Positions 28,355-62,197 of a stretch of 64,000 nucleotides of DNA are shown in pieces (position 1 is the first letter of the stretch; each line of letters begins with the position of its first letter). The notes under the pieces are model-generated. The model ran no database searches and had not been told where the DNA came from. It was given only the letters and a program-made list of their open reading frames with translations. Where the stretch lies: the NCBI GenBank assembly GCA_022703055.1, contig JAKLEP010000003.1:22238-86237 (forward strand), written 5' to 3'. This DNA is from Candidatus Omnitrophota bacterium. GTDB lineage: Bacteria > Omnitrophota > Gorgyraeia > VGKH01. A program made the position numbers and the translations under genes.

Positions 28355-28376
28355 GCTAAATCCTCCTTCTTATTTA

Positions 28377-30163: not shown

Positions 30164-30210
30164 CTATCCTCCAAATGAATAACTAATATTACAGCAAGCC
30201 CGACCTTTTA

Positions 30211-39458: not shown

Positions 39459-40904
39459 TTAGTACCTTTTTAGACTATTTTTTAGCTGTTTCAAAACAGT
39501 ATTGCTGGTCAAAATTCTATAAAAATAATTTAGTTCAGAATTAGTTTTAATTTTGGATACCATAACTCTAGGTAGTATTTTATGCAAGGGTTTTTTACCT
39601 TTATATACATTGTAGTCAAACCACACATAACTTTTTTGTATTTGTTTTTTATTGAATCCAGGAAGATCTAAAACTGCTTTATTTCTTTCCATTGTAGTAT
39701 CAAAAGGCTCCTTTAGCAATCCCATGTCTTTAGATAAATTATATAATTCAGTTCCAGGATAAGGGAAAAATATACTAAGAAAATGCCAGTCAGGCAAACA
39801 CTGACGATTAATTTCTATCGTTTGATTGAAATCCTCAATCGTCTCTCCTGGAATACCAAGTAAATTGAAGAAACAGATTTTCAGATCGTATTTACGCGCT
39901 AGTTTAGTAACTTTAATCACGTCCTCGTTTGAATATTCCCTCTTAAGCATTTGGCTGCGTATTCTTTCGCTTCCTGATTCTACCCCGATATTTATAAACT
40001 TAAAATTGCATTTTTTGAACAAGTTAAATATCTCATTAAAATCAATATTCTTAGCTATCCTTATATTGGTTCCAAATTCCAAGGGAGATTCTAGGGTCGA
40101 GTTAAAATGTTCCAATGCCGAACAGAGTTCAATACAAAAGTTTCTATTCAAAGTTATGGACTCAACTTCAAGATAGATTTCTTTCATGCCCGGGTAATTA
40201 TTAACAATTTTTTCAATTTCATTCAGAATATTTTCTGGCGATCTTAATCTAACATATGGTCCAGAAGCGATTTTTTTAAGCGCATGGTTACAACAGTAAG
40301 TGCATTCGAATGGGCAGCCTCTACCAACAAGCACGGACGAGTTTATTTCTGGCTCAGCTATCCATCCTTCCCACATTTTTCGATCAGGAGGTGGCAAAAT
40401 ATCGAGATGGTGCAAAAAGGGACGTGTAGAATTTTTTTCTAAGCTATCGCCATGTTTAATCCATAGATTAGAAATCATAGATGGTTCCTGGCCATTTTGC
40501 AACTGTTCAACTAACTCAAGAGTAGGATATTCCCCTTCCCCTATGCATAAAGCATCGAAGGAATCCTTGATGCATTCAACGGGATTAAGAGAGGGGTGAG
40601 CACCGCCAATTAACAAGAATATTTCCGGGAATCGATTCTTTATATATTCTGCAATTTCTGCAATAAATCTATATTCCGAATAAACCGCAGTAAAACAGAT
40701 CAAGGAAGGCAAAAAATCTTTTAGAAATTTTTCTAATTTATATTTCTTTGTTTTTTTCGTTATTACAAATAGCTTAGTATTATGGCCATATTGTTTTAAT
40801 AATGATGAGATATACGAGATACCAAATTGAATCTGTTCTTGGTTTTGAATGGGTTTATCAGTCGAGTAGTAATCCTGTCGTGAATAAATGAAAAGTATAT
40901 TCAA
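39459..40904 (-). CDS. B12-binding (class B) radical SAM enzyme no. 1
   Basis: The N-terminal cobalamin-type Rossmann region has FLLIGGAHPS. The radical SAM motif is GRGCPFECTYCC (CxxxCxxC). Also present are INIGVESGSERI and LLGIPGET. Confidence 0.85.
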   Translation of the reverse strand: MNILFIYSRQDYYSTDKPIQNQEQIQFGISYISSLLKQYGHNTKLFVITKKTKKYKLEKFLKDFLPSLICFTAVYSEYRFIAEIAEYIKNRFPEIFLLIGGAHPSLNPVECIKDSFDALCIGEGEYPTLELVEQLQNGQEPSMISNLWIKHGDSLEKNSTRPFLHHLDILPPPDRKMWEGWIAEPEINSSVLVGRGCPFECTYCCNHALKKIASGPYVRLRSPENILNEIEKIVNNYPGMKEIYLEVESITLNRNFCIELCSALEHFNSTLESPLEFGTNIRIAKNIDFNEIFNLFKKCNFKFINIGVESGSERIRSQMLKREYSNEDVIKVTKLARKYDLKICFFNLLGIPGETIEDFNQTIEINRQCLPDWHFLSIFFPYPGTELYNLSKDMGLLKEPFDTTMERNKAVLDLPGFNKKQIQKSYVWFDYNVYKGKKPLHKILPRVMVSKIKTNSELNYFYRILTSNTVLKQLKNSLKRY

Positions 40905-40935
40905 TTAAAACCTTTCTCGTTTCTCACAATATACA

Positions 40936-42375
40936 TTAATAGGCGCCCTTTCTTTTTAAAACTACTGGTATCGTCAGCCATAGAATTTTTAGATCTAAGC
41001 CAAAGCTCCAGTTATTGATATACCAGAGGTCTAGCTTAACCCATTTATAAAAACTTAAGTTGCTTCTTCCTCTTATTTGCCAAAGGCAGGTAATGCCTGG
41101 TTTGATTTGCAGCCTTTTTAGCTGCCAATCTTTGTATTGTTCTACTTCTTCGGGCGTAGGTGGGCGAGGCCCAACCAGGCTCATGTCTCCCTTAAATACA
41201 TTCCAAAGCTGGGGCAGTTCATCTAGGCTTAGTTTGCGCATAAGTCTTCCTAATTTTGTAACGCGCGGGTCATCGGCCATTTTAAAAATTGGTCCTTTCT
41301 TCTCGTTCTTGTCTTTTAGAGATCCCAGCATGGTATCTGCGTTTTGCACCATCGAGCGAAATTTATAGAAATTAAATAACCTTCCTTTCCTCCCGCATCG
41401 TTTTGATATATACCAGATCGGTCCAGGGCTATCCAGTTTGATTAAAACGCTTAAAATCAAAAATAGCGGGCAGCATAGCAACAAGGCCAACCCAGATAAG
41501 CATAAATCAAGAGCTCGCTTTATAATCAAATCTGTACCATGAATTTCTTTAATGTGATATTGAAGAAGTGGCACTGAGCCAATATGATGCATTTCAATGG
41601 TACTAATGGAAAGATCGAATAATTCCGGCACCATCCTTACGGTGACGCCGAGCCTCTTTGCTTCAGAAGTTACTTCGACAACCTTTTGCTTTTGGGAAGG
41701 AATAGTAATATATACTTCGTCAATGAATTTTTTCTTTACTATTTTTTCAAAATCAGTTGTTTCTCCTAAGATATGGTATCCGTTTATGACATCTGTCTTG
41801 TTTCTGTAGTCATCGAGAAAACCAACGATATTTAAGCCTAAAAAGGGATGATTCTTTATTTCATCAACCAACATAGCTCCGGTTTTCCCCGCTCCGACTA
41901 TCAGAACATTGAGGTTATTATAACCTTCGAGAATGAGTTGTCTGACATATAATCTTTTGATTATTCTCCATAGGCTTAAACATATAAATATGGTGACAGC
42001 GGAGATGCCAAAAATTAATCTAGAGAAAATCATAACCTTCAGGAAGAATATAGCAGCGAGCGGTGGCAAAGATGCAAAAAATATGGCCCTCAAGACTAAA
42101 ATAATTTCTCTTGGGATGGAAAGCTCTCTGTCGGTTCCATATAGGCCGTAGTTATTCAATATTAAGATTATAAGTAGTGTCCAGAATACAAAAATAAGCG
42201 AGTAAGTCGGAAGATTGCTAAAATGCAGAGTTTTCCAGAAGATAGGCAGATTAATCAACTGTTCTATTGTCAATCTGTTGTAGCGAAGTATATACGGGAC
42301 ATATACGCAGATGGCTATAAGCACTATATCAAAAACTATATAAAGCGCATTGGCTTTTGTTAATTCTTTACGCAT
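40936..42375 (-). CDS. Polyprenyl-phosphate glycosylphosphotransferase (WbaP/WcaJ-type initiating enzyme)
   Basis: The protein has N-terminal TM helices, a central Rossmann-like region ([10 protein letters not shown]), and a C-terminal Bac_transf domain ([21 protein letters not shown]). Confidence 0.9.
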
Positions 42376-43480
42376 TTAGCAACTCCCTGATAATTATCGG
42401 ACTGGCCTTTCCGTTTCCATAGGGATTTTTAGCAGTTATCATTTTTGAATATTGCTTACTATCTTTAAGCAGCCCAGATACCGAATTGACTATATCAGAT
42501 TTTTTTGTACCAATCAATTTAGCAATTCCTTCTTCTATCCCTTCCATTCTTTCGCTTACATTTCTCATGACGATTACGGGTTTTTTAATGCTTGGGGCCT
42601 CTTCCTGAACTCCGCCTGAATCGGTTAATATAAGATAAGAATTCTTCATCAACCAGACAAAAGACGGATAATTGAGAGGTTCTATCAAATGCATATTGTT
42701 AACCTTTGAAAGAATCTGAAAAACCGTTTTTCTGACATTCGGATTTAGATGCACCGGATAGACTATCTCAAGATTAGGAAATTCTCTTGCGATTTGTTTT
42801 AATCCTAGGCATATTTCCTGAAAAGGCTTGCCGAAGCTTTCTCTCCTATGTCCGGTGACAAGAAGAATCTTCTTAGAAAAGTCTATGTTTTTTAAGCTTC
42901 CAGCAAATTTATTTCTCGGAATACTTTTGATTTTATCGAGTGTATAAAATAAAGCGTCGATCCCGGTATTTCCAGTAATGAATATCTTCTTTTTTTCAAT
43001 GTTCTCTTTTAGCAGTGATTTCTCTGCTTTTTTTGTGGGGGCAAAATGGATATCGGCAAGTTGAGTTGTCAGTGTGCGGTTTATCTCTTCCGGAAAAGGA
43101 GAGAATTTATTGTATGTCCTTAAGCCCGCCTCAACATGAGCAATCTTGGTTTTGTTATAGAAAGCGCATAGAGCCCCTACAAAAGTAGTAGTTGTGTCTC
43201 CTTGTACTATCACCCAATCAGGATTGACTTTCTTGATGATGTCCCCAAGTTTTAATATTGCTTTCGATGTAATATCGAAAAGATTCTGGTTAGGCTCCAT
43301 TAAGTTTAAATCAAAATCTGGCCTAATGCCAAAAAAATTGACTACTTGATCAAGCATGTGCCTATGCTGTCCGGTGAGGCAGATATAGATCTTTATTTTT
43401 TTATGTTTTCTCGCCTCTTGGATAACTGGCGCCAATTTAATCGCGTCAGGGCGAGTTCCTAAAATAAAAAGTAATTTCAT
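42368..43480 (-). CDS. wecB: UDP-N-acetylglucosamine 2-epimerase (non-hydrolysing)
   Basis: The motifs are ILGTRPDAIKLAPV, VQGDTTT and DSGGVQEEAP. Confidence 0.9.
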   Translation of the reverse strand: MKLLFILGTRPDAIKLAPVIQEARKHKKIKIYICLTGQHRHMLDQVVNFFGIRPDFDLNLMEPNQNLFDITSKAILKLGDIIKKVNPDWVIVQGDTTTTFVGALCAFYNKTKIAHVEAGLRTYNKFSPFPEEINRTLTTQLADIHFAPTKKAEKSLLKENIEKKKIFITGNTGIDALFYTLDKIKSIPRNKFAGSLKNIDFSKKILLVTGHRRESFGKPFQEICLGLKQIAREFPNLEIVYPVHLNPNVRKTVFQILSKVNNMHLIEPLNYPSFVWLMKNSYLILTDSGGVQEEAPSIKKPVIVMRNVSERMEGIEEGIAKLIGTKKSDIVNSVSGLLKDSKQYSKMITAKNPYGNGKASPIIIRELLNA

Positions 43481-44565
43481 TTCTTTTTCTTTTTGTCGAA
43501 CTGAAAATCTCTTACTGCCGAGGACATTCCTGGAGGGAAATCAGCATCTTTTTCGATTTTATCCCAATTAGCTTTAAACCAGGCAATTGCATTCTTGATT
43601 CCTTCATCAAAAGTAGTATTTGGGCTATAACCGATCAGTTTATTGGCTTTGTCGATTGAGGCACAAAGCCGGTTTTTGGTATCCCACTTTCTTTTGGCGA
43701 CAAATTTGACCCCAGCAGGATTTTTTGTCAATTTATTGATTAAATTCGCCAAATCAATAATTTTGGTTTCTTTTCCTGACGCAAGATTGATATCTTCTCC
43801 CGCTGCCTTATCATTCGCAGCCGCTCTTAGAAGTCCTTCGACGATATCTCCGACATAAGTGAAATCTCTTGTCTCATCTCCTGTTCCAGTAATGGGTAGT
43901 GTTTTTTTCTGCATTGCCCAGAAAATGAAATTGGGGATTACATTACGGTATTGGCCAGGAATCTCTCCAGGGCCATAGGAATTAAAGAACCTAGTTTTAA
44001 CTACTTTTAAGTTGTAGTGATGATTGAAGAAATTGCAATAAAGTTCGCCCAACATTTTTGTTATCTGATAAGGTGAGCTCAAATGCAGAGACATGAATTC
44101 TTCTTTTAACGGTAAAGGTGAGCTGCTACCGTATATTGAACAGCCAGAAGACGCATAAATGAATTTATCAACTCCGGTTAGCACCGAATACTCAAGAAGT
44201 TTTAGCGTGCCCATTCCATTGACCAACAAGTCTTGTTCTGGATGATCTACGGAATTCTGGTTAGCAAAAAAAGCGGCCAGATGAAAAACACAATTTGGTT
44301 TTTCAAAAAATATCCTTTTTAGCTTAATTTCATCAAGGATGCTCCCTTCAACTAGCATGACATTGGGTAGCGATGGAACGCTCCATTTTTGCGCGGAAGA
44401 GAAATCATCCAGGATAATAACCATCTTGGCGCCTAATTCAGCCAGGGCGGCAGTCAAATTACAGCCGATTGCCCCTGCGCCTCCGGAGATAAGAATTTTC
44501 TTCCCTTTAAAATATTCACTAAAATTAACCAAGTTGCCTCCTTTAAAGTATTTTAGTTTTAGCAA
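43477..44565 (-). CDS. NAD-dependent sugar-nucleotide epimerase/dehydratase (extended SDR)
   Basis: The cofactor motif is ISGGAGAIGCNL and the catalytic YxxxK is SPYQITK. The substrate cannot be assigned from sequence alone. Confidence 0.8.
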   Translation of the reverse strand: MLKLKYFKGGNLVNFSEYFKGKKILISGGAGAIGCNLTAALAELGAKMVIILDDFSSAQKWSVPSLPNVMLVEGSILDEIKLKRIFFEKPNCVFHLAAFFANQNSVDHPEQDLLVNGMGTLKLLEYSVLTGVDKFIYASSGCSIYGSSSPLPLKEEFMSLHLSSPYQITKMLGELYCNFFNHHYNLKVVKTRFFNSYGPGEIPGQYRNVIPNFIFWAMQKKTLPITGTGDETRDFTYVGDIVEGLLRAAANDKAAGEDINLASGKETKIIDLANLINKLTKNPAGVKFVAKRKWDTKNRLCASIDKANKLIGYSPNTTFDEGIKNAIAWFKANWDKIEKDADFPPGMSSAVRDFQFDKKKKK

Positions 44566-45979
44566 CGGAAGATCTGATAAGAGCTGATATTCCGTTAGAG
44601 ATCTTGCGGATGTCAGAAACAGTCCTTATATTCGTAAGGTAGGAAAGAATTATGCTCGGCCTTACATAGAACTCCAAAAACGCCTTTTTTCGGTATGATT
44701 CAAGGGTTTCTTTTTTTAAGCCCTTAGGGACGAAAACAGGAAACCACATGCTCATTTTGTCCCAATTTCTATCGAATTCACCGTATTGGTCAGCCATATC
44801 GTAAATTTCTGAACCGGGCAGCGGCGTTAAGAACGTAGCATGAAAATCATCTAGTTTTATGCGTTTGGCGAAATCGATGGTTTGCTGCAAAGTTTCTTCC
44901 GTTTCCATGAAATTGCCCATCATAAAGAAACCTTTTGATTTTATCCCAACTTTTCTGGTCCATCCGATGACTTTTTCCATTTGTGCCAATGTCTCATTTT
45001 TGCGATAAAAGTCTAAAATATCCTGTGAGCCGCTCTCAAGGCCAAACGATATTCTCCAGCATCCGGCTTGTTTCATCATCAAAAGAAGCGATTCGTCAGT
45101 AATATTGTCGATACGGCCGTAGCATCCCCATGTTAAATCAATCTTTTCTTTAATCACTGCATTACAAAACTCTACCAGCCTGCTTTTCAGCATTATGAAG
45201 TTATCGTCGTTAAAGAATATATCTTTGATTCCGTATTGTTTCTGCAAATACTTTACTATTTCCAAGAGACGTTTTGTACTGTAAGCTCTTACTTTTGTTC
45301 CGAACATTGAATTGTCGCAGAACCTGCATTTGTAGGGACAGCCTCTTGAGGTTATAAGAGATGTGGTCGGTAGTCTGCCAAGTTTATGTACGGATGACTT
45401 ATAAGAGTGTGGAAAACCAGGCAGAAGATCCAAAGCATCCATAGGCAAGGAATCCAAATCTTTCAATAATTCAGCTCTGCCGGTGTTTATTGCGTGCTCA
45501 CCATCACGAAAAACCAACCCTTTTAATTTACTAAAATCCTTATTTTGTTCGAGAAGTTTTAATAGTTCAACAGTGGTGACTTCGCCTTCCCCTACGACTC
45601 CGATGTCAAACATGGGGAACATTTTGATGGTTTCTTCCGGCATAGCAGTGATGTGAGGCCCTCCAATTAAGATCTTAATCTCAGGATTGGTATTTTTTAT
45701 CCTTTCGGCGATTTTAGCTGCTTTATTTATCGAAACGGTAACAGTGGTAAAACCTACGTAGGCAGGTTTCTCTTCCAGGATAGCGCTCACGGTGCCTTCC
45801 ATACCTAACCCTAGTACCGCAGCGTCTAGAATTGAGACTGGGATATTGTTCTGTCTTAAAACGGCAGCCAAGATCGTAAGGCCAAGCGGCGGAAGCGACG
45901 TCCCGCCTTTAGCTAAGGTTCCGTATCGTTCTTCCAGGGTTAAGGGTGGATTAACTAGTACTATTTTTTTCATAACCAA
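44543..45979 (-). CDS. B12-binding (class B) radical SAM enzyme no. 2
   Basis: The N-terminus has LPPLGLTILAAVL and ILIGGPHITA. The radical SAM motif is SRGCPYKCRFCDN. FGLESGSQDIL is also present. Confidence 0.85.
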   Translation of the reverse strand: MVMKKIVLVNPPLTLEERYGTLAKGGTSLPPLGLTILAAVLRQNNIPVSILDAAVLGLGMEGTVSAILEEKPAYVGFTTVTVSINKAAKIAERIKNTNPEIKILIGGPHITAMPEETIKMFPMFDIGVVGEGEVTTVELLKLLEQNKDFSKLKGLVFRDGEHAINTGRAELLKDLDSLPMDALDLLPGFPHSYKSSVHKLGRLPTTSLITSRGCPYKCRFCDNSMFGTKVRAYSTKRLLEIVKYLQKQYGIKDIFFNDDNFIMLKSRLVEFCNAVIKEKIDLTWGCYGRIDNITDESLLLMMKQAGCWRISFGLESGSQDILDFYRKNETLAQMEKVIGWTRKVGIKSKGFFMMGNFMETEETLQQTIDFAKRIKLDDFHATFLTPLPGSEIYDMADQYGEFDRNWDKMSMWFPVFVPKGLKKETLESYRKKAFLEFYVRPSIILSYLTNIRTVSDIRKISNGISALIRSSVAKTKIL

Positions 45980-46709
45980 ATATCTCCCTCAAAACAACCC
46001 AGATAAAAATCAAATTGGTTGTGGCGTATCTTTTCCACAGCCGTTTCGGTTCCTGCAGAAATCTGTAAAACCATTCAAAACCTATTTTGCTTACCCATTT
46101 TGGGGCGAATTTACAATAACCAGCTGCGATGTCAATAGTTCCCCCTACGCCAAATGACACAGGTACATTCAACCTGGAAAGGTTTTTACTGATAAACCTT
46201 TCTTTGAGAGGGCTGCTCATGGCGACAAAAAGAACATCGGGCCTTGCTTCATTAATTTTCTTTATAATATCATAATCCTGGGAAAAGTCAAAATATCCGT
46301 GATGACGCCCAACTATATTCAAATTTGGGTGTTTTCCCTTAAGATTAGAGATAGCTTTCTCTAGAATTTCTTCTTTAGCGCCCAAGAAAAACAGCCGGTA
46401 GCCAGTATTTTGAGTTTTTTCAAGAAATCTAAACATTAATTTCGCAGCGCTTACGGGTTCTTTTAGCGATTTTCCTAAAAGCCTGCAGGCAAAATATACT
46501 ACGTGGCTATCAACAGTAAGCATGTCTGCTGATGCATATATTTTCTTAAGTTCCTTATCCTTATGCGCCCTAGCGACTAGTTCCGCACCAGTAGTAAATA
46601 CTGCTCGCGGCCTTCTTTCTTTTATAAACTCTTCCATTGTAGCGACCGCATCATCCAAAGTCACATTATTGTAGTTCAATCCAAAAACTTTGAAAGTTTG
46701 ATTTTTCAT
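45951..46709 (-). CDS. tagA: WecB/TagA/CpsF-family glycosyltransferase (N-acetylmannosaminyl-type)
   Basis: The 252 aa protein has FFLGAKEEILEKA...NIVGRHHGYF and VPVSFGVGGTID. It lies close to wecB, which supplies ManNAc. Confidence 0.8.
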   Translation of the reverse strand: MKNQTFKVFGLNYNNVTLDDAVATMEEFIKERRPRAVFTTGAELVARAHKDKELKKIYASADMLTVDSHVVYFACRLLGKSLKEPVSAAKLMFRFLEKTQNTGYRLFFLGAKEEILEKAISNLKGKHPNLNIVGRHHGYFDFSQDYDIIKKINEARPDVLFVAMSSPLKERFISKNLSRLNVPVSFGVGGTIDIAAGYCKFAPKWVSKIGFEWFYRFLQEPKRLWKRYATTNLIFIWVVLREIFGYEKNSTS

Positions 46710-48850: not shown

Positions 48851-48851
48851 T

Positions 48852-49955: not shown

Positions 49956-49972
49956 AGTGACTAAGTGTAATA

Positions 49973-51454
49973 TTACCTGTCTTTATAACAATAAGCTAAT
50001 GTTAACCCGAATAAACTCCAAAACGGAATAGCAAAATATGGTAACTCTAGGAAAACAATAAAATTTGCTAAAACTAACCAAAATAATAAAGCACTGCTTA
50101 ACAAGAGACCGATAAAATCTCGCCTTGTAATAAAATCTATTGTCAATTTGATGAATAATCCCCAAATAAATATTATGAATAATAATCCCATAATACCTGC
50201 TCTGTATAAAATGTGTATATAAGAATTATGGGGTTCTAGCCAGCCAACATCACTCCCAGTATGCCAACCAATGCCGCTGAGTTGATTTGAAGTTTCCAAA
50301 CTAACTGAACGGAATGGCTTCCCAAAATCCTCTCCCAAAATAATTTTGTCATGATAGACTTCCGAAACCATGTCTCGCCAGACAAACATTCTCCATAATA
50401 TATTGTATTCATCCTGGCCTCCAGATCTTGATATAACTGTTTGTTGTGATTGATTATCAACTTTTTTTATTTTCTCTTTATAATAATCAATGGGCAGCTC
50501 TATAGTTTCATAAACTATCCCTACAAGTTGTTTCGGGATTGAAACAGATGATTTTTCATCAGGTATTCGATATTCGCTATACAGTTTTATATTAGAATCC
50601 TTCGGTTTATATAAGGTACGAGCTGAATGTAGTTCTTTATTGAAGACCATGAAATCATTTATTGTACCTTTGATATTGGCCCAGATCTGTATCCGTTTAT
50701 GCATTTTTTCATTTACTAAGAAATTAAAAATTAATAATAAAATAATAAATGGGGCTAGATAAGAAAAAGATTTAAACTTCCAATTTTTAATTTTAATTAT
50801 TAGTAGTGGGTAAACTATAAACAGTAAATATATAATTGATACCCATAAAGAGATAAACATTCCCTTTGTTTGATTGAAAAGATTCCCAATGAATATAAAA
50901 TAAATAAAAATAATCAGTCCAACTAACTTTAAAAATCTATATTCAAAACTAATATATATCGCAAGAATTAAAATATAATATATAAATTGAAAATAGAGAG
51001 AAGGGTATGCTAAAGAGGCAAGAGTGGTTAATAAAATTAAAATAGCTAATTTAATACTGATTTTTTCAAATATGTTTTTATTATAAAAATAATAACTGAA
51101 TATAGCAAATATCGTATAATAAAAAAGGGCGGCGGATCTAAAAGAAAGTGCTCCCCATTTATAATATCCGGATAGCGCCTTTAGAACAATGAAGCCGAGA
51201 AAGGCTAAGAAAAGATAATGCCAAATACCAAGTTTTGCCTTTAATTTTGTAGTCTTATAGGTTAATAAAATAAAACAAGTCCCCAGCAAAATTTCCCCAA
51301 TGAAGATAGGAAAATTGACAAATTCAAATCTTATATTTAATTTTGCAAAATTATTAGCGAATAACGAATATAACAAACAAAATAGCCCAATCCCAAAAAT
51401 ACAAAAAATATCAATCCAAAATATATCATTATAATGTATTTTCTTGAGTTGCAT
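49973..51454 (-). CDS. Wzy-type O-antigen polymerase/ligase family membrane protein (second Wzy_C protein)
   Basis: This 493 aa protein is very hydrophobic and has a central soluble loop. The Wzy_C-like signature is PHNSYIHILYRAGIMGL. Confidence 0.65.
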   Translation of the reverse strand: MQLKKIHYNDIFWIDIFCIFGIGLFCLLYSLFANNFAKLNIRFEFVNFPIFIGEILLGTCFILLTYKTTKLKAKLGIWHYLFLAFLGFIVLKALSGYYKWGALSFRSAALFYYTIFAIFSYYFYNKNIFEKISIKLAILILLTTLASLAYPSLYFQFIYYILILAIYISFEYRFLKLVGLIIFIYFIFIGNLFNQTKGMFISLWVSIIYLLFIVYPLLIIKIKNWKFKSFSYLAPFIILLLIFNFLVNEKMHKRIQIWANIKGTINDFMVFNKELHSARTLYKPKDSNIKLYSEYRIPDEKSSVSIPKQLVGIVYETIELPIDYYKEKIKKVDNQSQQTVISRSGGQDEYNILWRMFVWRDMVSEVYHDKIILGEDFGKPFRSVSLETSNQLSGIGWHTGSDVGWLEPHNSYIHILYRAGIMGLLFIIFIWGLFIKLTIDFITRRDFIGLLLSSALLFWLVLANFIVFLELPYFAIPFWSLFGLTLAYCYKDR

Positions 51455-51529
51455 TAGCTCTCCTTATTAATATACTAAATAATGTTTATAATTGTTTAAA
51501 AACTATTTCACTAAAATTATATTGCTTTA

Positions 51530-52567
51530 TCAAACGTCTTTTTCAATAACATCAAGAATAACTTTAGCAAAGCTTTCTTTTGTAAAAAGTTTGTATTTCT
51601 CAGAACTTAAATATATGCGAGCATTTTCGCGATATTGCTGAATTTCATTTTCAGTCAAAGATTGAAGGTATTCTCTTAAATTAGAATAATCGCTGAATTC
51701 CCTCATATCAATAAAACATTCCTTTGGAACATAATTAGTTATATCTGGAGCTCCTAAATATACTGGAATCGTTCCAGTAAAAAAACAATCAAAGATTTTC
51801 TCGGTAACATAGCCTTCGAATATCATGTTTTCAAAACAAAGGGCAAAATTATATTGTGCAAGCATTTCATATTTCGATTTTATCGAACCCTTATAACATT
51901 TCAAAATCGATTTTCGATTTAATAAATACGGCCAATATAAAATATGTTTTCTCCAGCCGTATCCGTATAAGTCAAAGTCGTTGTATTGGCTGAAAAATTC
52001 TATTGCCCTAATTCTCTCTCTGTAAAGTTCTTTTTTAGCTAGTACTGGCTTTTTGTTAGCATTTATTAAAGTTAAAAATTTTCTTTTCTTGTTTCCCCAT
52101 AGACTCTCTATTACTGAATTTTCTGTTTGCGGCCAGTAAAATTTATGTATATTTTTTGTTTTATCGATATATTCGGATAGCTCATCGCTGGTATTATGAA
52201 GAAAAATATTTTTAAAAAAGGTTGATATTCTTTTTATGTTTTTATAAAGTTCGGGGGCCACTACCAATGGTTCAAATATAAAAAAAGAATTTAATATTAC
52301 ATTCCGCTTTAGGGCAAGCTTTCGATAGTTTTTTACTACTCCTAAAGAAATATAAATGTTTAATTTTTCTGACTCCGAGCCATTCGATAAATAATCGGCA
52401 GTAAATACGCTATAGCCTTTAGATTCAAGAAACTTTTTAAGATAAATAAACGGTAAAAGACAATTATCTCTATTCAGATTATTATTCTTTTCATCGAATA
52501 GTCTATTTTTATAATAGCTTTTTGAGGTTGGATCGATAAATATTTTTATATCATTTACATTAACCAT
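51530..52567 (-). CDS. GT10-family (alpha-1,3/4-fucosyltransferase-like) glycosyltransferase
   Basis: FALCFENMIFEGYVTEKIFDCFFTGTIPVYLGAP matches the FucT motif (FENS...YVTEK..DA....IPIY.G). Confidence 0.75.
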   Translation of the reverse strand: MVNVNDIKIFIDPTSKSYYKNRLFDEKNNNLNRDNCLLPFIYLKKFLESKGYSVFTADYLSNGSESEKLNIYISLGVVKNYRKLALKRNVILNSFFIFEPLVVAPELYKNIKRISTFFKNIFLHNTSDELSEYIDKTKNIHKFYWPQTENSVIESLWGNKKRKFLTLINANKKPVLAKKELYRERIRAIEFFSQYNDFDLYGYGWRKHILYWPYLLNRKSILKCYKGSIKSKYEMLAQYNFALCFENMIFEGYVTEKIFDCFFTGTIPVYLGAPDITNYVPKECFIDMREFSDYSNLREYLQSLTENEIQQYRENARIYLSSEKYKLFTKESFAKVILDVIEKDV

Positions 52568-53589
52568 AGATTTAATGCATTTATTTGTTTTTTAACATTA
52601 AATAGGGTAAATAATAACAAAAAACCGAACATGAATGATTTAGATAAATTTTTTATAGTCTTTGGGCTAGACAAAAGTTTATGCCAAGAAAATGATTTTA
52701 ATAGAAGACTTCGTGCTTCGTTTTGCTTTCTTTGTTTAATTAGATTAAATGAGATTTTGACATCATCCCAAAATTTGTTAAATTCATATTGTCCTAATAC
52801 AGATTTTTTTAATTGAATATTTTTTGCTTCCAAAGATGAATTCAGGTACTCGTCTAAAATAACAAAATGATTTGCTCTACTAATGCGCGTAGATTCATAT
52901 CTATACGTTCCTCGAGATCTGCTAATTCGCCTTCTGATTAGGCGCTCTTTCAGAATTCCTATAGAATATTTTTCTGCGATTTTTAGCCACAAAGCCATAT
53001 CGCTTCCCGAACCATCTGAATCGCCGTATTTTAATGTTTCATCAAACAGGCCAACGTTATCTATAACATTCCTTTTTGTCATAAATGTTGGCGTAACCAA
53101 GAAGCTCCCAGATTTATATAATAATTCTTGAAATAGAACACTGAAATCTAAGATAGCACTATTTCCAATGTTTTTAGGTAGCTCTACTCCGTTCCCGATA
53201 AATATGTCTTTTTCATTGATTAATTTATCCAAAGAAAAAACCGCACCAACTCTTAAATTTGATAATAAAAAGTTAACTTCCTTTTCGATAATTTGCGGTT
53301 CGTAAATATCGTCTGAATGATATATTGCTATACATTCTCCTTTTGCCATCTTTAACCCGAAATTCCAATTAGTTATACAGCTTGTTGTTTTTGAACTTTT
53401 GTAATATTTTATCCTTTCATCCTTGAAGGAATCCACTATCTCCTTCGTGTTGTCCGTGGAGGCGTTATCACAAACTATTATCTCCAAATCTTTATAAGTC
53501 TGATTAATAATAGATTCTAAGGATTTCTTTAAGTAATTTGAGTCATTATAAGTTGGGACACAAACACTAACAAGAGGGTTATTTACCAT
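52555..53589 (-). CDS. GT2-family glycosyltransferase
   Basis: The N-terminus reads VSVCVPTYNDSNYLKKSLESIINQTYKDLEIIVCDNASTDNT, followed by a DxD-type SDD. Confidence 0.85.
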   Translation of the reverse strand: MVNNPLVSVCVPTYNDSNYLKKSLESIINQTYKDLEIIVCDNASTDNTKEIVDSFKDERIKYYKSSKTTSCITNWNFGLKMAKGECIAIYHSDDIYEPQIIEKEVNFLLSNLRVGAVFSLDKLINEKDIFIGNGVELPKNIGNSAILDFSVLFQELLYKSGSFLVTPTFMTKRNVIDNVGLFDETLKYGDSDGSGSDMALWLKIAEKYSIGILKERLIRRRISRSRGTYRYESTRISRANHFVILDEYLNSSLEAKNIQLKKSVLGQYEFNKFWDDVKISFNLIKQRKQNEARSLLLKSFSWHKLLSSPKTIKNLSKSFMFGFLLLFTLFNVKKQINALNLWLM

Positions 53590-54604
53590 ATTTTATCCCT
53601 GTAAGATTAAAAATTTCTTTAATTCTTTTTTCATATGTATGTTCGCTTAGTGTTCTTTTATAGCCATTCTGTGCGATTTCGCCACGCTCAGATTCGTTTT
53701 TTAAATAATATCTTATTTTTTCAATTAAGTCGTCCATATCCATATAAATCGTGATTTCCTTGCCAACCTCATAACAGTGCTCTAATCCTTCAACGTAATA
53801 AGATAATTGAAACCCTCCGCAACCAGGAATTTCAAAATGTCTACCCTTTATTTGTTCTCTATTTTTTACGTCTCCCTTTTTAAAACGCGACATCGCATTC
53901 CTGAATGCCTTTGCGGAAGATAGCATATATCTAATATCTAAGCTACCGCTATTTGATAAATTTAAATTTATCTTGCTCTGATTAAAAACATTTATCAATT
54001 CCTCGAAGGAAATATATCCATTTTTCCATCCCGCTCCCACTATATAAACATTGATACCCGCTTTCCTCAGCTTTTTTAATATCCATTCTCTATAGGGATG
54101 ATACGCTCCGGCAAAAGAAACATCGTACTTTTTAGGAAAATCATTTTTTGCCCATAAATAGTGATTACATCCGAAAGGCGAATAGATCACTTTCTCTAAT
54201 CCCCTCTCTCGCCATTTTCTGATTCCATTAAAATCAGGCGTGGTTATGTAGTCAAAATGAGGCGCCCAATAGGTAGAAAACTTTATTCTCCACTGATCGT
54301 CCCAGAAATAACATAAAGTTTTAGTATGTTCTCTTATTTGGTCTAAAACTTCAGGAATAAATTGATTTGTATATAAAGAAAATATGGTTAATTCAGGTTT
54401 TTCTTTTTTAATCGTTCTTAGCAACTGCTCGTTGAGTAAATACTTTTCTTGTTTATCAAAAACGTTCTTGTAATCAAAAAATAAAGCATTCTCTCCTAAC
54501 ACTCTCTTTAATACATCATAAATATTGTAATAATCGTAAGAGAAACCTCGCTCTTTAATTCCATAATCATATAGCATCGAAACCATTAAGACTTTAGTAT
54601 TCAT
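53579..54604 (-). CDS. CgeB-family / DUF3880-type glycosyltransferase
   Basis: The C-terminal region GRHFEIPGCGGFQLS...IAQNGYKRTLSEHTYEKR is typical of the CgeB-like Glyco_trans_1_2 family. Confidence 0.65.
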   Translation of the reverse strand: MNTKVLMVSMLYDYGIKERGFSYDYYNIYDVLKRVLGENALFFDYKNVFDKQEKYLLNEQLLRTIKKEKPELTIFSLYTNQFIPEVLDQIREHTKTLCYFWDDQWRIKFSTYWAPHFDYITTPDFNGIRKWRERGLEKVIYSPFGCNHYLWAKNDFPKKYDVSFAGAYHPYREWILKKLRKAGINVYIVGAGWKNGYISFEELINVFNQSKINLNLSNSGSLDIRYMLSSAKAFRNAMSRFKKGDVKNREQIKGRHFEIPGCGGFQLSYYVEGLEHCYEVGKEITIYMDMDDLIEKIRYYLKNESERGEIAQNGYKRTLSEHTYEKRIKEIFNLTGIKYGK

Positions 54605-56085
54605 AAATTTCCAAATACAATTGATTTAATTTTTTGTTCAAAATCGTCTAAAAAGGGCATTTTTAACGGAAATTTAAGCCATTTCCTTGCTAAAATCACC
54701 TCAATCAATAAAACGTAAATCCCTGTTGCTGATAGTAACATGATTGACTGAAAAAGTGTGGGCATCAATAACACTTTCTTCATGGCTGAGAAAAATGCAA
54801 TTACCGGTAAGCTAAGGGTAAATCCATAAAAAATTCGTTTCCAGGGAATCTGAATTGGCAGAAGCTTTCTCATTTTAAAATAAAGATGGACTAAGGCAAG
54901 CAACCATCCAAGGAAAAGAGCCAGTCCTGCTCCAAGAAACGGGTTAATTTTTACGAACAAAAAGACGCCTGTTATCGCTACGAAAGCCCCGGTTATACCT
55001 GGAAAAATAAGAGGCTTCATCTTCATTTCGGCATGAGACACCATTCCTAGCGTGGAAAAAATCATCCTCAGCAACTCTGAAACTGCGCCCCACAAAACAA
55101 TGCTTCCTACTGCATGAAACTTCTCGTCAGTAAAAACTGTGATAAATAAATGTCCCCCCGCAGATACATAAACTGCTACAATTATTGCTGCAGGAAAAAA
55201 GGCATAAGAATAATTATTCCAGGCAATAGTTTTCTCTTTTTTATCGCTATTAGAAATATCATTATAAAAAACAGGATGATAGTATTGATTAAATAAGGTG
55301 TCAAAGGAAAGCATCAAATTGCTTCCTATTCCGAAACCAACAACAAAAAAACCAAGAAGCTCAGTTCCTGCAATGCTTTGAAAAACAAAACGATAACCTT
55401 GCGTATGGCACCAGTACAAGAAAGTTCCGATTGCAAGCGGCCAGGCGAAATTAAATACCGCAGACAAAGTAAAACCTTCTTTATTGTTGGATGTGGCGCT
55501 ATTGTTTTTTCTTAATATTTTAAAGAGAACTGGTATCGCTAGAAATAGAACCAACGCATTCCCAAGTAATTGTCCCAAAAGCCAATATTCAGCTTTTGAA
55601 AATAACCTCAAGACAAAAAATATAGAAATACCTATGCCTAGCCATAAAGTCAAAACGCTAAAAAAAACGAATAAAAATCTTTTCCTAAACAGATTTAACC
55701 AGCCTAAAACAGATGTGTTCAGGCTATAAAGTAGAATACTTCCAGCAATAATAATAAATATCCATAAGGAACTGGCTATAATGCCTATTCCAATCAAGTA
55801 GTTTAGAATAACAATGCCAAATCCCGCTAGCAATGACACAATTATGAAGTATTTAAATAAACAAATCAAATTCTTATGAACAACTTCAAGCGTATCCCAT
55901 TCAATAATTTTCCTATTTACATACATAACAACTGGGTTAAGCAAAACCAGCGCAAACCAGCCATAAATTGCTAAAAAAATATTTAAACGGCCAATTTCAG
56001 TAGGTGAAAGTAAAGTAGTAAATAAACGAATAGAAATAATGGAGGTAATCATTATCAGAATTCGCCCAAGTACTATGATAAACAT
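54601..56085 (-). CDS. wzx: Wzx-like polysaccharide flippase (MOP superfamily)
   Basis: The 494 aa protein has about 12-14 hydrophobic helices throughout. The call rests on its position within the GT cluster and on topology, with no specific motif. Confidence 0.6.
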   Translation of the reverse strand: MFIIVLGRILIMITSIISIRLFTTLLSPTEIGRLNIFLAIYGWFALVLLNPVVMYVNRKIIEWDTLEVVHKNLICLFKYFIIVSLLAGFGIVILNYLIGIGIIASSLWIFIIIAGSILLYSLNTSVLGWLNLFRKRFLFVFFSVLTLWLGIGISIFFVLRLFSKAEYWLLGQLLGNALVLFLAIPVLFKILRKNNSATSNNKEGFTLSAVFNFAWPLAIGTFLYWCHTQGYRFVFQSIAGTELLGFFVVGFGIGSNLMLSFDTLFNQYYHPVFYNDISNSDKKEKTIAWNNYSYAFFPAAIIVAVYVSAGGHLFITVFTDEKFHAVGSIVLWGAVSELLRMIFSTLGMVSHAEMKMKPLIFPGITGAFVAITGVFLFVKINPFLGAGLALFLGWLLALVHLYFKMRKLLPIQIPWKRIFYGFTLSLPVIAFFSAMKKVLLMPTLFQSIMLLSATGIYVLLIEVILARKWLKFPLKMPFLDDFEQKIKSIVFGNL

Positions 56086-56145
56086 TTTACTGATCTTCCT
56101 TTTCTTTAGAAATATTCATTCCTGATTTTGAAGTTAGCGGAATAG

Positions 56146-57150
56146 TTAAGTTTCATTTTTGCGCTTATAATTAATCAAAGATTTTCTTAAGTTATAAATA
56201 AAAGTACAGAGATTGCTTGGTAAAAACATTAAAGGGAAAATGAAAAACCAAAAAAAAGGATATTTTTTGAATTCTTTAATGAATTTTAAAGTGTAAGGTT
56301 TAAAAACTATGCTATTACTTCTCGAGACTAATATTTCTCTAGGTAGGCTACTAAACATCACTTCAACTGTTCGTCTGACAGATTTCCTGCTATACTTGCT
56401 GCTGTGAGCATTTATTATCCTCATCAAGCTAATTGTATTTTTCAGATTTTTCTCACCATGTTTATCCCATCGCAAGTTATTATACCGATATAAAACATAA
56501 GGTTTTGAGATGCAATAAGAACTATTCCCTGGTAAAAGCGAAAGCAGGGTGGCAAACTGAATCCAAAACGAACCCATATAAATACTGTTATCCGTCTTTT
56601 CCCATAATGAACGATTGACGATATTTGATGAAAGAAGAACCGGAGTCAACCTAACAGTATGCAAAAAATCATCAGCGGTTTTACAAAAGATATCGCTTTT
56701 TGAAGTAATTCCATATCTACCTATTTTATATTGTTGTTTTAAATCTAGGCTGGCAGACTGCCAATTAACAAATATTGCGGCAATATTTCTATTTTCTTCT
56801 AGAACACTTAAAACTTTTTTTAGCGAGCCTTCTAGCATCTTGTCATCATCGCTAAAAAGCCATACATACTCTCCCTTTGATCTTCTTACAGACAAATCAA
56901 TATTTCTGTCAGGGCCAAGATCCATTTCATTTCTAAAATAAGAAAATATTCCGGGGTATCTTTCTTTATATTCGTCAATTATCATAGGTGTTTTATCTGT
57001 AGAAGCATTATCGCTGATTACTATTTCGATTTTTTCCTCAATATCGTTTAATTGAGAAACAATACTATCAAGCGCTTCCCTTATATATTCTGATCCATTA
57101 TAAGTTGGAATTCCAATAGACAACCTCAAACGAGAAGTACTTAATTCCAT
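56146..57150 (-). CDS. GT2-family glycosyltransferase
   Basis: The N-terminus reads LSIGIPTYNGSEYIREALDSIVSQ...EIVISDNASTDKT, followed by a FSDDD DxD motif. The C-terminus has a TM segment. Confidence 0.85.
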   Translation of the reverse strand: MELSTSRLRLSIGIPTYNGSEYIREALDSIVSQLNDIEEKIEIVISDNASTDKTPMIIDEYKERYPGIFSYFRNEMDLGPDRNIDLSVRRSKGEYVWLFSDDDKMLEGSLKKVLSVLEENRNIAAIFVNWQSASLDLKQQYKIGRYGITSKSDIFCKTADDFLHTVRLTPVLLSSNIVNRSLWEKTDNSIYMGSFWIQFATLLSLLPGNSSYCISKPYVLYRYNNLRWDKHGEKNLKNTISLMRIINAHSSKYSRKSVRRTVEVMFSSLPREILVSRSNSIVFKPYTLKFIKEFKKYPFFWFFIFPLMFLPSNLCTFIYNLRKSLINYKRKNET

Positions 57151-58550
57151 CTAGAACTCCTGAAATTTGTTAAGCTAAAAACTTTTTTTACCGTCTGAAC
57201 AGGAGATTTTAGTAAATAAACAAATCCTTTATAAACAAAAAAGGCTCTTCCTCTTATAGCAAAAAAACCAGAAGTCATTTTTGCCTTTAATCTCAATAGA
57301 TCTTGATAAGAATGTTCGACAGTAAAATAGGGAACTTCTTTATCTGACAACCAGTAATCGTCCCCAATCAATCTTTTTTCTTTCATTAAATCAAAAACTT
57401 CAGTATTTGGGTATACCCACAAAATGGCAACTCCGTAAACTCCAAATTTTCTTATCTTATACAACTCTTTAAGGAAATTCACGGACTCCTCTACTGTTTT
57501 ATCGCTTTCTCCGGGAAAACCTAACATCATATAAAGGGTTATACTTATTTTTTTTACCTTCGTTAAGTTTCTGAAGGTCTCTTTTACGTCTTCCCGAGTT
57601 ATGTTTTTATGGATTGAAGCTAATAGTTTCTCACTGCCTGTTTCAAGCCCAAAACCGATGCTTACAAATCCCGCCTCTTCCATCAGCTTAAACATCTCTT
57701 TGCTGGAAGGCTTTATCCTTGCCGAACACGAGAGTTTCACTTTAATATTTCGTTTTACTATTTCCTTACAAAATTCCATCGCCCTTTCTACATCAAGAGT
57801 AAAGGTATCATCCGCTATTTGTATAGAATTAATGTTTTTAAATGCGCTTAATATATATTCTATTTCCTTTATAATATTATCAACAGATCTTTTCCTATAT
57901 ATCCTCTTTGATATTGTATGCAAACAGCAAAAACTGCATTTAAAAGGACATCCTCTGCTTGTCAAAATACAAGCCATTTTCCTTTTGCTAGTGATAAAGA
58001 GTTCATGTTTTGGAAAAGGTAGTTCGTCTAAGTTTTCTACTAACTCTCTTTCTTCGGTTTTGACCACTTGCCCGTTTCTTCTGTAAGAAATGCCTCTTAT
58101 CTTTGAGGTGTCTTCAGCTTTATCCAAAGCCCTTAACAATTCAACTATTGTCTTCTCGCCTTCTCCTAAAACCGCATAATCAATATCAAAATTGTTTAGA
58201 AGTTGCTCGTACATTATGGTTGCATGCACTCCCCCGATAATTACCTTGATATCATTTTTTAATTCTTTTGCAATTTTAAATACTTTGTAACTGGTAACTC
58301 TATTCATGGAGAATAGTTGCATTAAAAGATAATCCGGGTTAAAGCCAGAAATCTCTTCTCTGATATCATTTAATGAAGCAACCTCGTCAGATGTATTATA
58401 ATTTTTCGTCTTAATAGCGTACCCGGATTTTTCAATTACAGAATGAAGATACCCCAATCCTAAACTGTATGAATTTTCATCGTCGGATATATTTTTAAGT
58501 TTAAAACTTTCTTCTAAGGGAGCGCTTATTAGGAGTATTCTTTTCATCAC
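57141..58550 (-). CDS. B12-binding (class B) radical SAM enzyme no. 3
   Basis: The N-terminus has VIIGGVHATI and the radical SAM motif is SRGCPFKCSFCC. FGLETGSEKLL and MLGFPGES are also present. Confidence 0.85.
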   Translation of the reverse strand: MMKRILLISAPLEESFKLKNISDDENSYSLGLGYLHSVIEKSGYAIKTKNYNTSDEVASLNDIREEISGFNPDYLLMQLFSMNRVTSYKVFKIAKELKNDIKVIIGGVHATIMYEQLLNNFDIDYAVLGEGEKTIVELLRALDKAEDTSKIRGISYRRNGQVVKTEERELVENLDELPFPKHELFITSKRKMACILTSRGCPFKCSFCCLHTISKRIYRKRSVDNIIKEIEYILSAFKNINSIQIADDTFTLDVERAMEFCKEIVKRNIKVKLSCSARIKPSSKEMFKLMEEAGFVSIGFGLETGSEKLLASIHKNITREDVKETFRNLTKVKKISITLYMMLGFPGESDKTVEESVNFLKELYKIRKFGVYGVAILWVYPNTEVFDLMKEKRLIGDDYWLSDKEVPYFTVEHSYQDLLRLKAKMTSGFFAIRGRAFFVYKGFVYLLKSPVQTVKKVFSLTNFRSSRWN

Positions 58551-58551
58551 T

Positions 58552-59925: not shown

Positions 59926-60035
59926 TTCGTTATCATAAGAAGGGAATTTAAAAAAAGCTAACGAAGAAGCATGAGAAAAATAAGATTCGTCTGATATCTT
60001 TTTTATTTATATGAATAATTCAACATAACATTTTA

Positions 60036-61705: not shown

Positions 61706-62197
61706 CTATACCCGCATATAACCGGCTCTGTCAGAAACCAGCCAGTCATCGACTAGCTTAGTAAAAGAACGCTTGTCGCTGTAGGGATCATAAATATCTA
61801 AATTGATAAGTTTCATTAATGCGATGTCGTCTTTACCGCAGCAATGCGACGGCCCAAGGAGCTTAAAATAATTATTAACCCCAGTTGCGATGAATTTTAC
61901 GTTTAATTTTTGTAAAACTACATCATTACGCATCTGCTCTAATGACCTGAAAACCAAGAAATTAACTATTGAATAAACTAGCGGTATTAATCCGCTCATG
62001 CTCATACCCGCAGCAATACCGATAGTGCCCTGTTCCATTACGCCGCAATTAATTATACGTTTTGGATATTCTGCACGCAGCTTATCAATTACTCCAAAAC
62101 CCATATCGCAAACTAGCAAATAATAACGAGGGTCTTTACGAAAGTACGGTAATAAAGCGTTGCCAATATCTCTACGGTAATTTTTAACTCTGGCCAT
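61706..62197 (-). CDS. Transketolase-like ThDP enzyme, small subunit containing only the Pyr domain
   Basis: From the internal Met (MARVKNY...) the sequence aligns to the transketolase C-section pattern (NCGVMEQGTIGIAAGMSMSG with the catalytic Glu). It stops at ...AGYMRV, where the extra C-terminal domain would begin. The track ORF extends to 62257. Confidence 0.7.
   Translation of the reverse strand: MARVKNYRRDIGNALLPYFRKDPRYYLLVCDMGFGVIDKLRAEYPKRIINCGVMEQGTIGIAAGMSMSGLIPLVYSIVNFLVFRSLEQMRNDVVLQKLNVKFIATGVNNYFKLLGPSHCCGKDDIALMKLINLDIYDPYSDKRSFTKLVDDWLVSDRAGYMRV

Follow-up and report, generated by a model that had tools for sequence, protein, structure and literature searches.

Why should one bacterial operon carry three radical S-adenosylmethionine (SAM) enzymes of the same class? 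The question is raised by a stretch of 64,000 nucleotides from a Candidatus Omnitrophota bacterium (assembly GCA_022703055.1, contig JAKLEP010000003.1, positions 22,238 to 86,237), referred to below as the window. Three of its genes, R1, R2 and R3, encode class-B radical SAM proteins, which carry a B12-binding domain, and are found among genes for the assembly of a surface polysaccharide (Table 1). Here, we argue that R1-R3 probably represent three ancient, horizontally moving class-B families that have come together in one surface-polysaccharide operon, where they would tailor the sugars of the glycan by radical chemistry. Our analysis contributes the distinction between these families, each of which has a conserved module of its own.

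All three proteins score above the Pfam gathering cut-offs for the B12-binding (PF02310, 32.1 bits) and Radical_SAM (PF04055, 29.5 bits) domains, with 48.3 and 84 bits for R1, 83.7 and 81.1 bits for R2, and 59.5 and 97.7 bits for R3. Each has a single CxxxCxxC motif (CPFECTYC at residue 197 of R1, CPYKCRFC at 214 of R2 and CPFKCSFC at 201 of R3), a single GGxH motif (GGAH at 100, GGPH at 106 and GGVH at 106, respectively), a single GEGE motif (at 122, 130 and 129) and a single GxExGS motif (GVESGS at 307, GLESGS at 313 and GLETGS at 301), and a hydrophobic segment of the membrane-protein type is found in none of them. We think it rather likely that R1-R3 are intact cytoplasmic class-B radical SAM enzymes, in which a cobalamin-type Rossmann domain at the N-terminus is predicted to precede a [4Fe-4S]/SAM core. 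A preliminary description of this DNA had recognized a cobalamin-type region and radical SAM motifs in the three open reading frames (ORFs), in agreement with the ORF calls, Pfam matches and motifs reported here. The immediate neighbours that it named within the window are all present as described, and the divergence that it claimed is reflected in pairwise BLASTP identities of 28% (R1-R2), 24% (R1-R3) and 29% (R2-R3).

The TTG start of R1 gives the same first residue as in the family alignment (A1). For R2, an exact database look-up of the protein read from its TTG start returned no match; the ATG two codons downstream is the start of the database copy (P0001), which is 100% identical and begins two residues downstream of the ORF start. 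Likewise, the 100% identical database copy of R3 (P0241) begins one residue downstream of the ORF start. A protein identical to R2 is also encoded in a Candidatus Omnitrophica metagenome-assembled genome (MAG; JGI 3300010429 Ga0116241_10000035 and GCA_028686955.1), with the same gene order in both.

That the three proteins are not recent duplicates, as the preliminary description proposed, came from comparison with their relatives. R1, R2 and R3 each have more than 100 full-length homologues of their own kind, at identities of 54-66%, 45-81% and 40-64%, respectively, and the hosts include Omnitrophota, Elusimicrobia, Margulisbacteria, Planctomycetes (Scalindua among them), Desulfobacterota, Patescibacteria and the DPANN archaea Pace-, Woese- and Nanoarchaeota. 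Orthologues from other phyla score 360-750 bits against their own window protein, compared with 50-170 bits against the other two, and each family has 45-60 invariant family-specific positions, and about as many nearly invariant ones, across phyla. As judged from these sequence comparisons, R1, R2 and R3 appear to be ancient paralogous families spread between phyla by horizontal transfer, not duplicates that arose in this lineage. Searches of plasmids found no orthologues of R1-R3, only relatives of less than 33% identity; a Clostridium estertheticum plasmid carries such relatives within a cluster for a ribosomally synthesized and post-translationally modified peptide (RiPP).

To which class-B enzymes, then, are the three families related? 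AlphaFold models were built from the family alignments for R1 (pLDDT 93.4, pTM 0.91) and R2 (pLDDT 89.9, pTM 0.88) and compared with the PDB using Foldseek. Both gave full-length, two-domain matches. The best match of R1 is MgmA (9CCB, E 1e-22), followed by TsrM, AprD4, CysS, OxsB and TokK; that of R2 is AprD4 (6FD2, E 5e-28, TM-score 0.74, 22% identity), followed by TsrM, MgmA, OxsB (TM-score 0.75), TokK and CysS. Against MgmA, TsrM, CysS, TokK and OxsB, the two models have TM-scores of 0.64-0.75 over 440-575 aligned columns, and the B12-type fold is kept in both. In sequence, each of R1-R3 has an N-terminal domain that aligns with the cobalamin domain of TokK, CysS and/or OxsB, whereas likeness to AprD4 is limited to the radical SAM core. 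R3 matches CysS (9N1B) over residues 28-360, and TokK, a relative of ThnK, matches R1-R3 at superfamily level only.

In NCBIfam, R1, R2 and R3 stay below the cut-off of every curated class-B family scored. Their scores are 100, 195 and 168 bits, respectively, for BchE (TIGR02026, cut-off 481 bits), 120, 189 and 162 bits for HpnJ (TIGR03471, cut-off 578 bits), 79, 84 and 99 bits for HpnR (TIGR04367, cut-off 650 bits), and 70.5, 108 and 78 bits, over the radical SAM core only, for AprD4 (NF033070, cut-off 500 bits). The top matches are HpnJ for R1, BchE for R2, and BchE together with the ladderane-lipid model (TIGR04072, cut-off 360 bits) for R3; the last gives 164 bits with R3 and is the nearest among the other curated class-B families. 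The BchE model aligns with R2 over its full length, and the BchE, HpnJ and ApyD models all outscore the AprD4 model for this protein. Also below cut-off for all three proteins are PhpK P-methylase, ApyD, KedN5, BzaD, MgmA (TIGR04014), TsrM (TIGR04428), ArsL and TIGR04295. Since a two-domain match goes together with NCBIfam scores that are all under the cut-offs, R1-R3 belong to class B by architecture and fold, yet appear to lie outside every characterised class-B subfamily that was compared in this way. None of the class-B models with a score for R1-R3 is named for GenK, Fom3, ThnK or HpnP, and none of the curated classes with a known non-glycan function (BchE, HpnJ/HpnR, ladderane lipid, methyl-coenzyme M reductase (MCR) or RiPP methylases) is reached. 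As the two models also retain the B12-type fold, neither of the outcomes that the preliminary description named as counting against its idea was obtained.

The genes around R1-R3 point to the assembly of a glycan. All genes from ~29 kb to the right-hand edge of the window are on the minus strand. Between 63985 and 38238, 23 ORFs run in the same direction, overlapping or leaving gaps of no more than 110 nt; pgk, tpiA and secG come after them. The operon extends over at least 26 kb. Overlaps or gaps of 1-31 nt join R1-R3 to the adjoining glycan genes, to which they are translationally coupled within the window. The locus is a Wzx/Wzy-type heteropolysaccharide operon, for an O-antigen, a capsule or an exopolysaccharide (EPS), in agreement with the glycan-assembly steps named in the preliminary description. 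It has an initiating polyprenyl-phosphate hexose-1-phosphate transferase (PGT), a WecG-type enzyme, glycosyltransferases of families GT2 (three), GT4 and GT10, a Glyco_trans_1_2 protein and a Wzy_C protein. Its flippase is probably the ~14-segment membrane protein, to judge by homology to genes in the flippase position of other loci.

Conserved gene context differs from family to family. Among 10 independent loci with close orthologues of R1 (at least 53% identity), the immediate neighbour is a glycosyltransferase, Wzy or Wzx in seven, and two of the remaining loci have adjoining proteins with 9 and 14 transmembrane segments. As in the window, the R1 orthologue has a Wzy_C gene as its direct neighbour in a Margulisbacteria MAG (L005) and in a Planctomycetes MAG (L007/L008); in a Verrucomicrobiota MAG (L014) the Wzy_C gene is two genes away. 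The membrane proteins beside the R1 orthologues in L096 and L097 have no meaningful Pfam match even at E <= 1. These neighbours were identified with Pfam, as our home-made profiles missed divergent Wzy_C proteins. A metagenome scan with R1 yielded ~9 usable close relatives; a scan of a genome collection with the R1 alignment returned mostly distant class-B paralogues (25-37% identity) and ~10 of the R1 type, and was used for rough enrichment only. The conserved partners of R1 are Wzy_C or other polytopic membrane proteins, and glycosyltransferases.

The Planctomycetes locus (L007/L008, GCA_019456255.1) has a further feature. At 5252-12838, a cytidylyltransferase-phosphoenolpyruvate (PEP) mutase fusion, a thiamine diphosphate (ThDP) decarboxylase, an Fe-alcohol dehydrogenase and a Glyphos_transf protein are followed by the R1 orthologue and then by Wzy_C. 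This gene set resembles the early fosfomycin pathway (Fom1, Fom2 and FomC), where the class-B enzyme Fom3 follows, and it hints at a phosphonate-decorated glycan.

For R2, the recurring neighbour is a GT-C transferase of the PMT or PMT_2 type, which is found in all four orthologue loci examined: adjoining R2 in L003 and L113, one gene off in L112, and 4-8 kb off in L004. In L112, a class-I methyltransferase is adjacent to the R2 orthologue, between it and the PMT gene, and a GtrA-type gene is also present. L003 resembles an Arn cluster and carries DegT, GT2, formyltransferase, epimerase and deacetylase genes; L111 has an R2-like gene (346 bits) next to a GT2-GtrA fusion. Moreover, a class-I SAM methyltransferase domain is part of the polypeptide in eight R2 homologues, placed N-terminally in seven of them and C-terminally in the other (P0046, P0054, P0055, P0064, P0066, P0069, P0077 and P0088). 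That the fusion occurs in both orders indicates that it arose more than once, and links the radical SAM and methyltransferase activities. The conserved partners of R2 are class-I methyltransferases and GT-C transferases of the PMT_2 type.

R3 belongs to a larger unit. GT10-like, Glyco_trans_1_2, GT2 and flippase-position genes are found in all four other R3 loci, namely L009/L010 (Elusimicrobia), L011 (Desulfobacterales), L110 and L111. Over their full length, the window genes are 28-34% (GT10-like) and 38-47% (Glyco_trans_1_2) identical to those of L009, L011, L110 and L111, and the GT2 gene of the cassette is 33-37% identical to the GT2 genes of the four loci. The probable flippase is 26% identical (E 2e-37) to a 480-aa membrane protein adjoining R3 in L009, and has a weak match to a Polysacc_synt flippase of L110. 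As these partner genes recur in all four of these loci, R3 is part of a portable cassette, which corresponds here to 51530-58550 and lies inside a stretch of low GC content. The GC content is 0.35 over the cluster, 0.29-0.35 over 48.8-60 kb and 0.40 in the housekeeping part of the window; the coincidence of the low-GC stretch (48800-60000) with the R3 cassette suggests horizontal acquisition. In L009 (7502-8974) and L110 (13745-15205), Glyco_trans_1_2 and GT10 are separated by a second class-B gene, whose clade is sister to R3 (378-387 bits to R3); this gene is absent from the window cassette.

The neighbour pairs that the preliminary description put forward as partners have to be revised in part. 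The pairing of R1 with Wzy_C recurs in Margulisbacteria and Planctomycetes, as stated above, but the WecG/TagA and short-chain dehydrogenase/reductase (SDR) genes flanking R2 are found together with it only in the window's lineage, and the partners of R3 are the GT10, Glyco_trans_1_2, GT2 and flippase genes of its cassette, and not specifically the large membrane protein. The conserved gene context differs between the three families, in favour of the suggestion of three distinct reactions and not of redundancy. We conclude that three distinct glycan-tailoring roles are well supported. Several class-B genes in one glycan locus are also found elsewhere: there are three in L004 and L110, four in L012, and at least four in L007 and L112. 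Among 80 related class-B loci in GTDB genomes, 43 have at least one glycosyltransferase-type gene within 6 kb, and such genes make up 74 of ~643 flanking genes, a rough count built on home-made profiles. In the glycan loci of two unrelated organisms (L007/L008 14509-16742 and L111 14594-16967), a carbamoyltransferase and a small SxtJ-like protein, with DUF5989 too in L111, are encoded a few hundred bases from further class-B genes.

How could the three enzymes act? By analogy with other radical SAM enzymes, each would cleave SAM reductively to generate a 5'-deoxyadenosyl radical, which would abstract a hydrogen atom from a sugar carbon. This would take place at the cytoplasmic face, on an intermediate that is either nucleotide-activated or linked to polyprenyl-(di)phosphate, and the most likely outcome would be the transfer of a methyl group from methylcobalamin to an unactivated carbon. 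We favour such C-methylation because the N-terminal domains of R1-R3 resemble true cobalamin domains, and because several class-B paralogues that share one natural-product cluster typically methylate different positions. R1 could modify the repeat unit handled by the co-inherited Wzy_C protein. R2 could act together with a class-I methyltransferase on a sugar that is later delivered by a GT-C transferase, and R3 could tailor a sugar that is built or transferred by the GT10, Glyco_trans_1_2 and GT2 enzymes of its cassette.

The cobalamin dependence of R1-R3 is predicted from domain homology only, and AprD4 is an example of a B12-type fold that functions in the absence of cobalamin. No Rfam family reaches its gathering score in the whole 64-kb window, which has neither a cobalamin riboswitch nor a tRNA, and no cobalamin genes are found there. 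A survey of Omnitrophota reported that cobalamin biosynthesis is present but not universal in the group (PMC10066038).

Several observations weigh against radical tailoring of glycan sugars by three cobalamin-dependent methylases, or limit its reach. We found no paper describing the R1-R3 families, the samples are small (4-10 independent loci per family), and the predicted-fold evidence covers R1 and R2. The DxHxxG motif is absent from 93 of 93 family members, so that there is no positive sequence sign of cobalamin binding, although its absence is usual for class-B enzymes. Distant R1-like genes (36-51% identity) are found in mixed contexts, with thiolase and nonribosomal peptide synthetase (NRPS), MqnC-like radical SAM, PAD or SulP genes; as these contexts often have nothing to do with glycans, inference from gene context is valid only for close orthologues. 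Finally, the best structural match of R2, AprD4, is an enzyme that dehydrates instead of methylating and uses no cobalamin. The last point leads to a different mechanism, in which one or more of the three, R2 above all, would be a cobalamin-independent, non-methylating radical SAM enzyme. R2 could then dehydrate a 1,2-diol, and the SDR next to it could reduce the keto product to a deoxy sugar; other conceivable radical outcomes are epimerisation, oxidation or ring contraction, the last of which has been proposed for HpnJ and shown for OxsB. AprD4 is the best solved match of R2 by sequence (102.5 bits) as well as by fold, the overlap of R2 with the SDR gene recalls the AprD4/AprD3 dehydratase-reductase pair, and the best NCBIfam matches of all three proteins include the non-methylases BchE and HpnJ. 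The fusion of R2 homologues to a separate class-I methyltransferase could likewise mean that the radical SAM domain itself does not methylate. However, the NCBIfam AprD4 model falls far short of its cut-off with R2, covers the core only and is outscored by three other models, and in sequence the N-terminal domains of R1-R3 find their match in the cobalamin domains of TokK, CysS and OxsB, not in the N-terminal domain of AprD4. The adjacency of R2 and the SDR gene is not conserved in L003, L112 and L113, and for this reason we have demoted an AprD4/AprD3-like pair to an alternative. We consider an AprD4-like mechanism unlikely, though it has the strongest claim to be taken seriously after C-methylation.

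It is less probable still that the substrates of R1-R3 are not glycans at all but a membrane lipid, a peptide or a cofactor, so that their position in the operon would be incidental or would reflect co-regulation with the envelope. Lipid, tetrapyrrole and RiPP chemistry are all established for class-B enzymes, R3 has its 164 bits to the ladderane-lipid model, and distant relatives lie beside thiolase-like and NRPS genes or, on the Clostridium estertheticum plasmid, in a RiPP cluster. Yet the scores to curated families are all far under the cut-offs, the operon has no lipid or peptide-precursor genes, R1-R3 are closely coupled to glycan genes, and in several phyla the close orthologues of each of the three are again found with glycosyltransferase, flippase, Wzy or GT-C genes. 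We regard a non-glycan substrate as improbable. That R1-R3 are redundant or decaying paralogues without separate roles we find very hard to believe: they share a domain architecture and an operon, but their low mutual identity, their invariant and nearly invariant family-specific positions across phyla, their intact sequences with complete cluster motifs, the confident models of R1 and R2, and the differing conserved partners all argue against it. Tailoring of glycan sugars by three different radical enzymes is the reading that we prefer.

The remaining genes of the operon add to this picture (Table 1). The SDR stays below all NCBIfam equivalog cut-offs. The 714-aa fusion protein is kept in a sister assembly and has partial NCBIfam matches, below cut-off, to UDP-GlcNAc 3-dehydrogenase and IolG. 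Three polytopic membrane proteins (49973-51454, 54601-56085 and 58552-59925) have no meaningful Pfam match even at E <= 1. That next to R3 may be a divergent GT-C enzyme, having a weak NCBIfam match (30.5 bits, cut-off 200) to the LA_3751/LA_3752 putative glycosyltransferase family of Leptospira and a marginal match to the PMT_2 profile in hhalign (E 0.006, probability 6%); the protein at 49973-51454 does not match the PMT_2 profile. The operon has five radical SAM genes in total, the two without a B12 domain being outside 39459-58550. The short GT2 protein has weak NCBIfam matches to ArnC, PpgS and AglJ, all below cut-off, and the split ThDP enzyme matches Transketolase_N (93.6 bits) and Transket_pyr (51.1 bits), with partial matches to NCBIfam transketolases. 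Together, the four features between 60036 and 63985 suggest a further unusual sugar-modification branch in the same operon. A similar pairing of a split ThDP enzyme with radical SAM is found on plasmid pDMC1 of Solidesulfovibrio magneticus RS-1 (L115, record 22514-32602), in a glycan cluster with a class-B radical SAM gene (~27% identical to R1 and R2), two GT2, NUDIX and kinase genes, a ThDP E1-alpha/transketolase-C pair, GDP-fucose synthase, DegT and epimerase genes; its cultured host could be a tractable model.

Table 1. R1-R3 and the other genes of the operon, with positions in the 64-kb window
Feature	Position	Strand	Remarks
Wzy_C polytopic membrane protein (polymerase or ligase type)	38238..39455	minus	Pfam Wzy_C 68.9 bits; ~13 transmembrane segments; 3 nt downstream of R1
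R1, class-B (B12-binding domain) radical SAM protein	39459..40904	minus	481 aa; TTG start
Initiating polyprenyl-phosphate hexose-1-phosphate transferase	40936..42375	minus	Bac_transf 227 bits and CoA_binding_3; TIGR03025 EPS_sugtrans 442.9 bits (cut-off 295.6)
UDP-GlcNAc 2-epimerase	42368..43480	minus	Pfam Epimerase_2 390 bits
Extended SDR nucleotide-sugar epimerase/dehydratase	43477..44565	minus	Epimerase 165.8 bits and GDP_Man_Dehyd; overlaps R2 stop by 23 nt
R2, class-B radical SAM protein	44543..45979	minus	probable true start ATG 45973 (476 aa)
WecG/TagA/CpsF-family glycosyltransferase	45951..46709	minus	Glyco_tran_WecG 192.5 bits; TIGR00696 117 bits (cut-off 69)
Fusion of Zn-alcohol dehydrogenase (ADH)-like domain and GFO/IDH/MocA oxidoreductase (sugar dehydrogenase type)	46706..48850	minus	714 aa; Pfam ADH_zinc_N, GFO_IDH_MocA
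GT4 glycosyltransferase	48852..49955	minus	Glycos_transf_1 125.8 bits
Polytopic membrane protein	49973..51454	minus	~11 transmembrane segments; no Pfam or NCBIfam match
GT10-like glycosyltransferase, R3 cassette	51530..52567	minus	Glyco_transf_10 69.3 bits
GT2 glycosyltransferase, R3 cassette	52555..53589	minus	Glycos_transf_2 106.8 bits
Glyco_trans_1_2 glycosyltransferase-like protein, R3 cassette	53579..54604	minus	PF13524 121 bits
Polytopic membrane protein, probably Wzx-type flippase, R3 cassette	54601..56085	minus	~14 transmembrane segments; no Pfam match
GT2 glycosyltransferase	56146..57150	minus	Glycos_transf_2 86.6 bits; overlaps R3 stop by 10 nt
R3, class-B radical SAM protein	57141..58550	minus	probable true start ATG 58547 (468 aa)
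Membrane protein, possibly GT-C-type glycosyltransferase	58552..59925	minus	12 transmembrane segments; 1 nt upstream of R3
Radical SAM protein without B12 domain	60036..60893	minus	285 aa; Radical_SAM 33.5 bits; no NCBIfam family reached
Short GT2, possibly polyprenyl-phosphate sugar synthase type	60900..61679	minus	Glycos_transf_2 78.1 bits
Split transketolase-like ThDP enzyme	61706..63017	minus	N-terminal subunit 62184-63017; pyrimidine-binding subunit 61706-62257
Radical SAM/SPASM protein	63014..63985	minus	Radical_SAM 70.5, SPASM 26.8 bits; frame open upstream of ATG to window edge

What could be the wider meaning of these families? Most class-B radical SAM sequences have no known function, and R1-R3 are clear members of this known superfamily that are generically annotated and have no characterised close relative. 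Our literature searches turned up no account of class-B radical SAM enzymes encoded in O-antigen, capsule or EPS loci, and to our knowledge no such enzyme has been shown to tailor a cell-surface polysaccharide. It is conceivable, although we hold this view tentatively and with some doubt, that loci with two to five class-B genes mark a widespread, unstudied cell-envelope chemistry in anaerobic, mostly uncultured lineages, in which C-methyl or other radical-derived modifications are placed on lipid-linked surface glycans by at least three portable modules. The lineages may include Omnitrophota, Elusimicrobia, Planctomycetes, Desulfobacterota, bacteria of the candidate phyla radiation (CPR) and DPANN archaea, and the modules may be R1 with Wzy, R2 with a methyltransferase and GT-C, and R3 with the GT10 and Glyco_trans_1_2 cassette. 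If so, envelope synthesis in these organisms would depend on vitamin B12.

The locus and its relatives define three enzyme families open to testing, for which there are clear candidate partners as well as candidate substrates. Their confirmation would add new sugar modifications to those of bacterial and archaeal envelopes, would tie the envelope structure of many uncultured anaerobes to the availability of cobalamin, and would offer new catalysts for modifying unactivated sugar carbons. To a specialist in radical SAM enzymes, the existence of such families would not be a surprise; they nevertheless give a concrete, testable way into an envelope glycan chemistry of uncultured anaerobes that would be linked to B12 and may be widespread.

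We would like to compare R1-R3 with the known systems that they most resemble. BchE- and HpnJ-like enzymes are the highest-scoring curated families, but the scores are 2.5- to 5-fold under the cut-offs of 481 and 578 bits, and the window has no tetrapyrrole or hopanoid genes. HpnJ has been proposed to rearrange a lipid-linked glucosamine by ring contraction, a comparable type of substrate. The methylases MgmA (9CCB), TsrM (6WTE/6WTF), CysS (9N1B-D) and TokK (7KDX/7KDY) and the ring-contracting OxsB (5UL2-4) match the fold of R1 and R2 over the full length; however, the identity is only 13-20%, and these enzymes act on a protein, an amino acid, carrier-linked polyketide or carbapenam intermediates, or a nucleotide. 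AprD4, the apramycin 1,2-diol dehydratase, is like R2 in combining a B12-like N-terminal domain with a radical SAM barrel; it acts on a sugar, as is proposed here for R2, and R2 adjoins an SDR gene.

A further parallel in chemistry, by description, is with GenK and GenD1 of gentamicin and MoeK5 of moenomycin biosynthesis, which have the same two-domain class-B architecture. These are cobalamin-dependent radical SAM sugar C-methyltransferases acting on carbohydrate carbons, and MoeK5 has been proposed to act on a lipid-linked sugar. They belong to antibiotic pathways of actinomycetes, whereas R1-R3 are encoded in the Wzx/Wzy surface-polysaccharide operon of an uncultured anaerobe.

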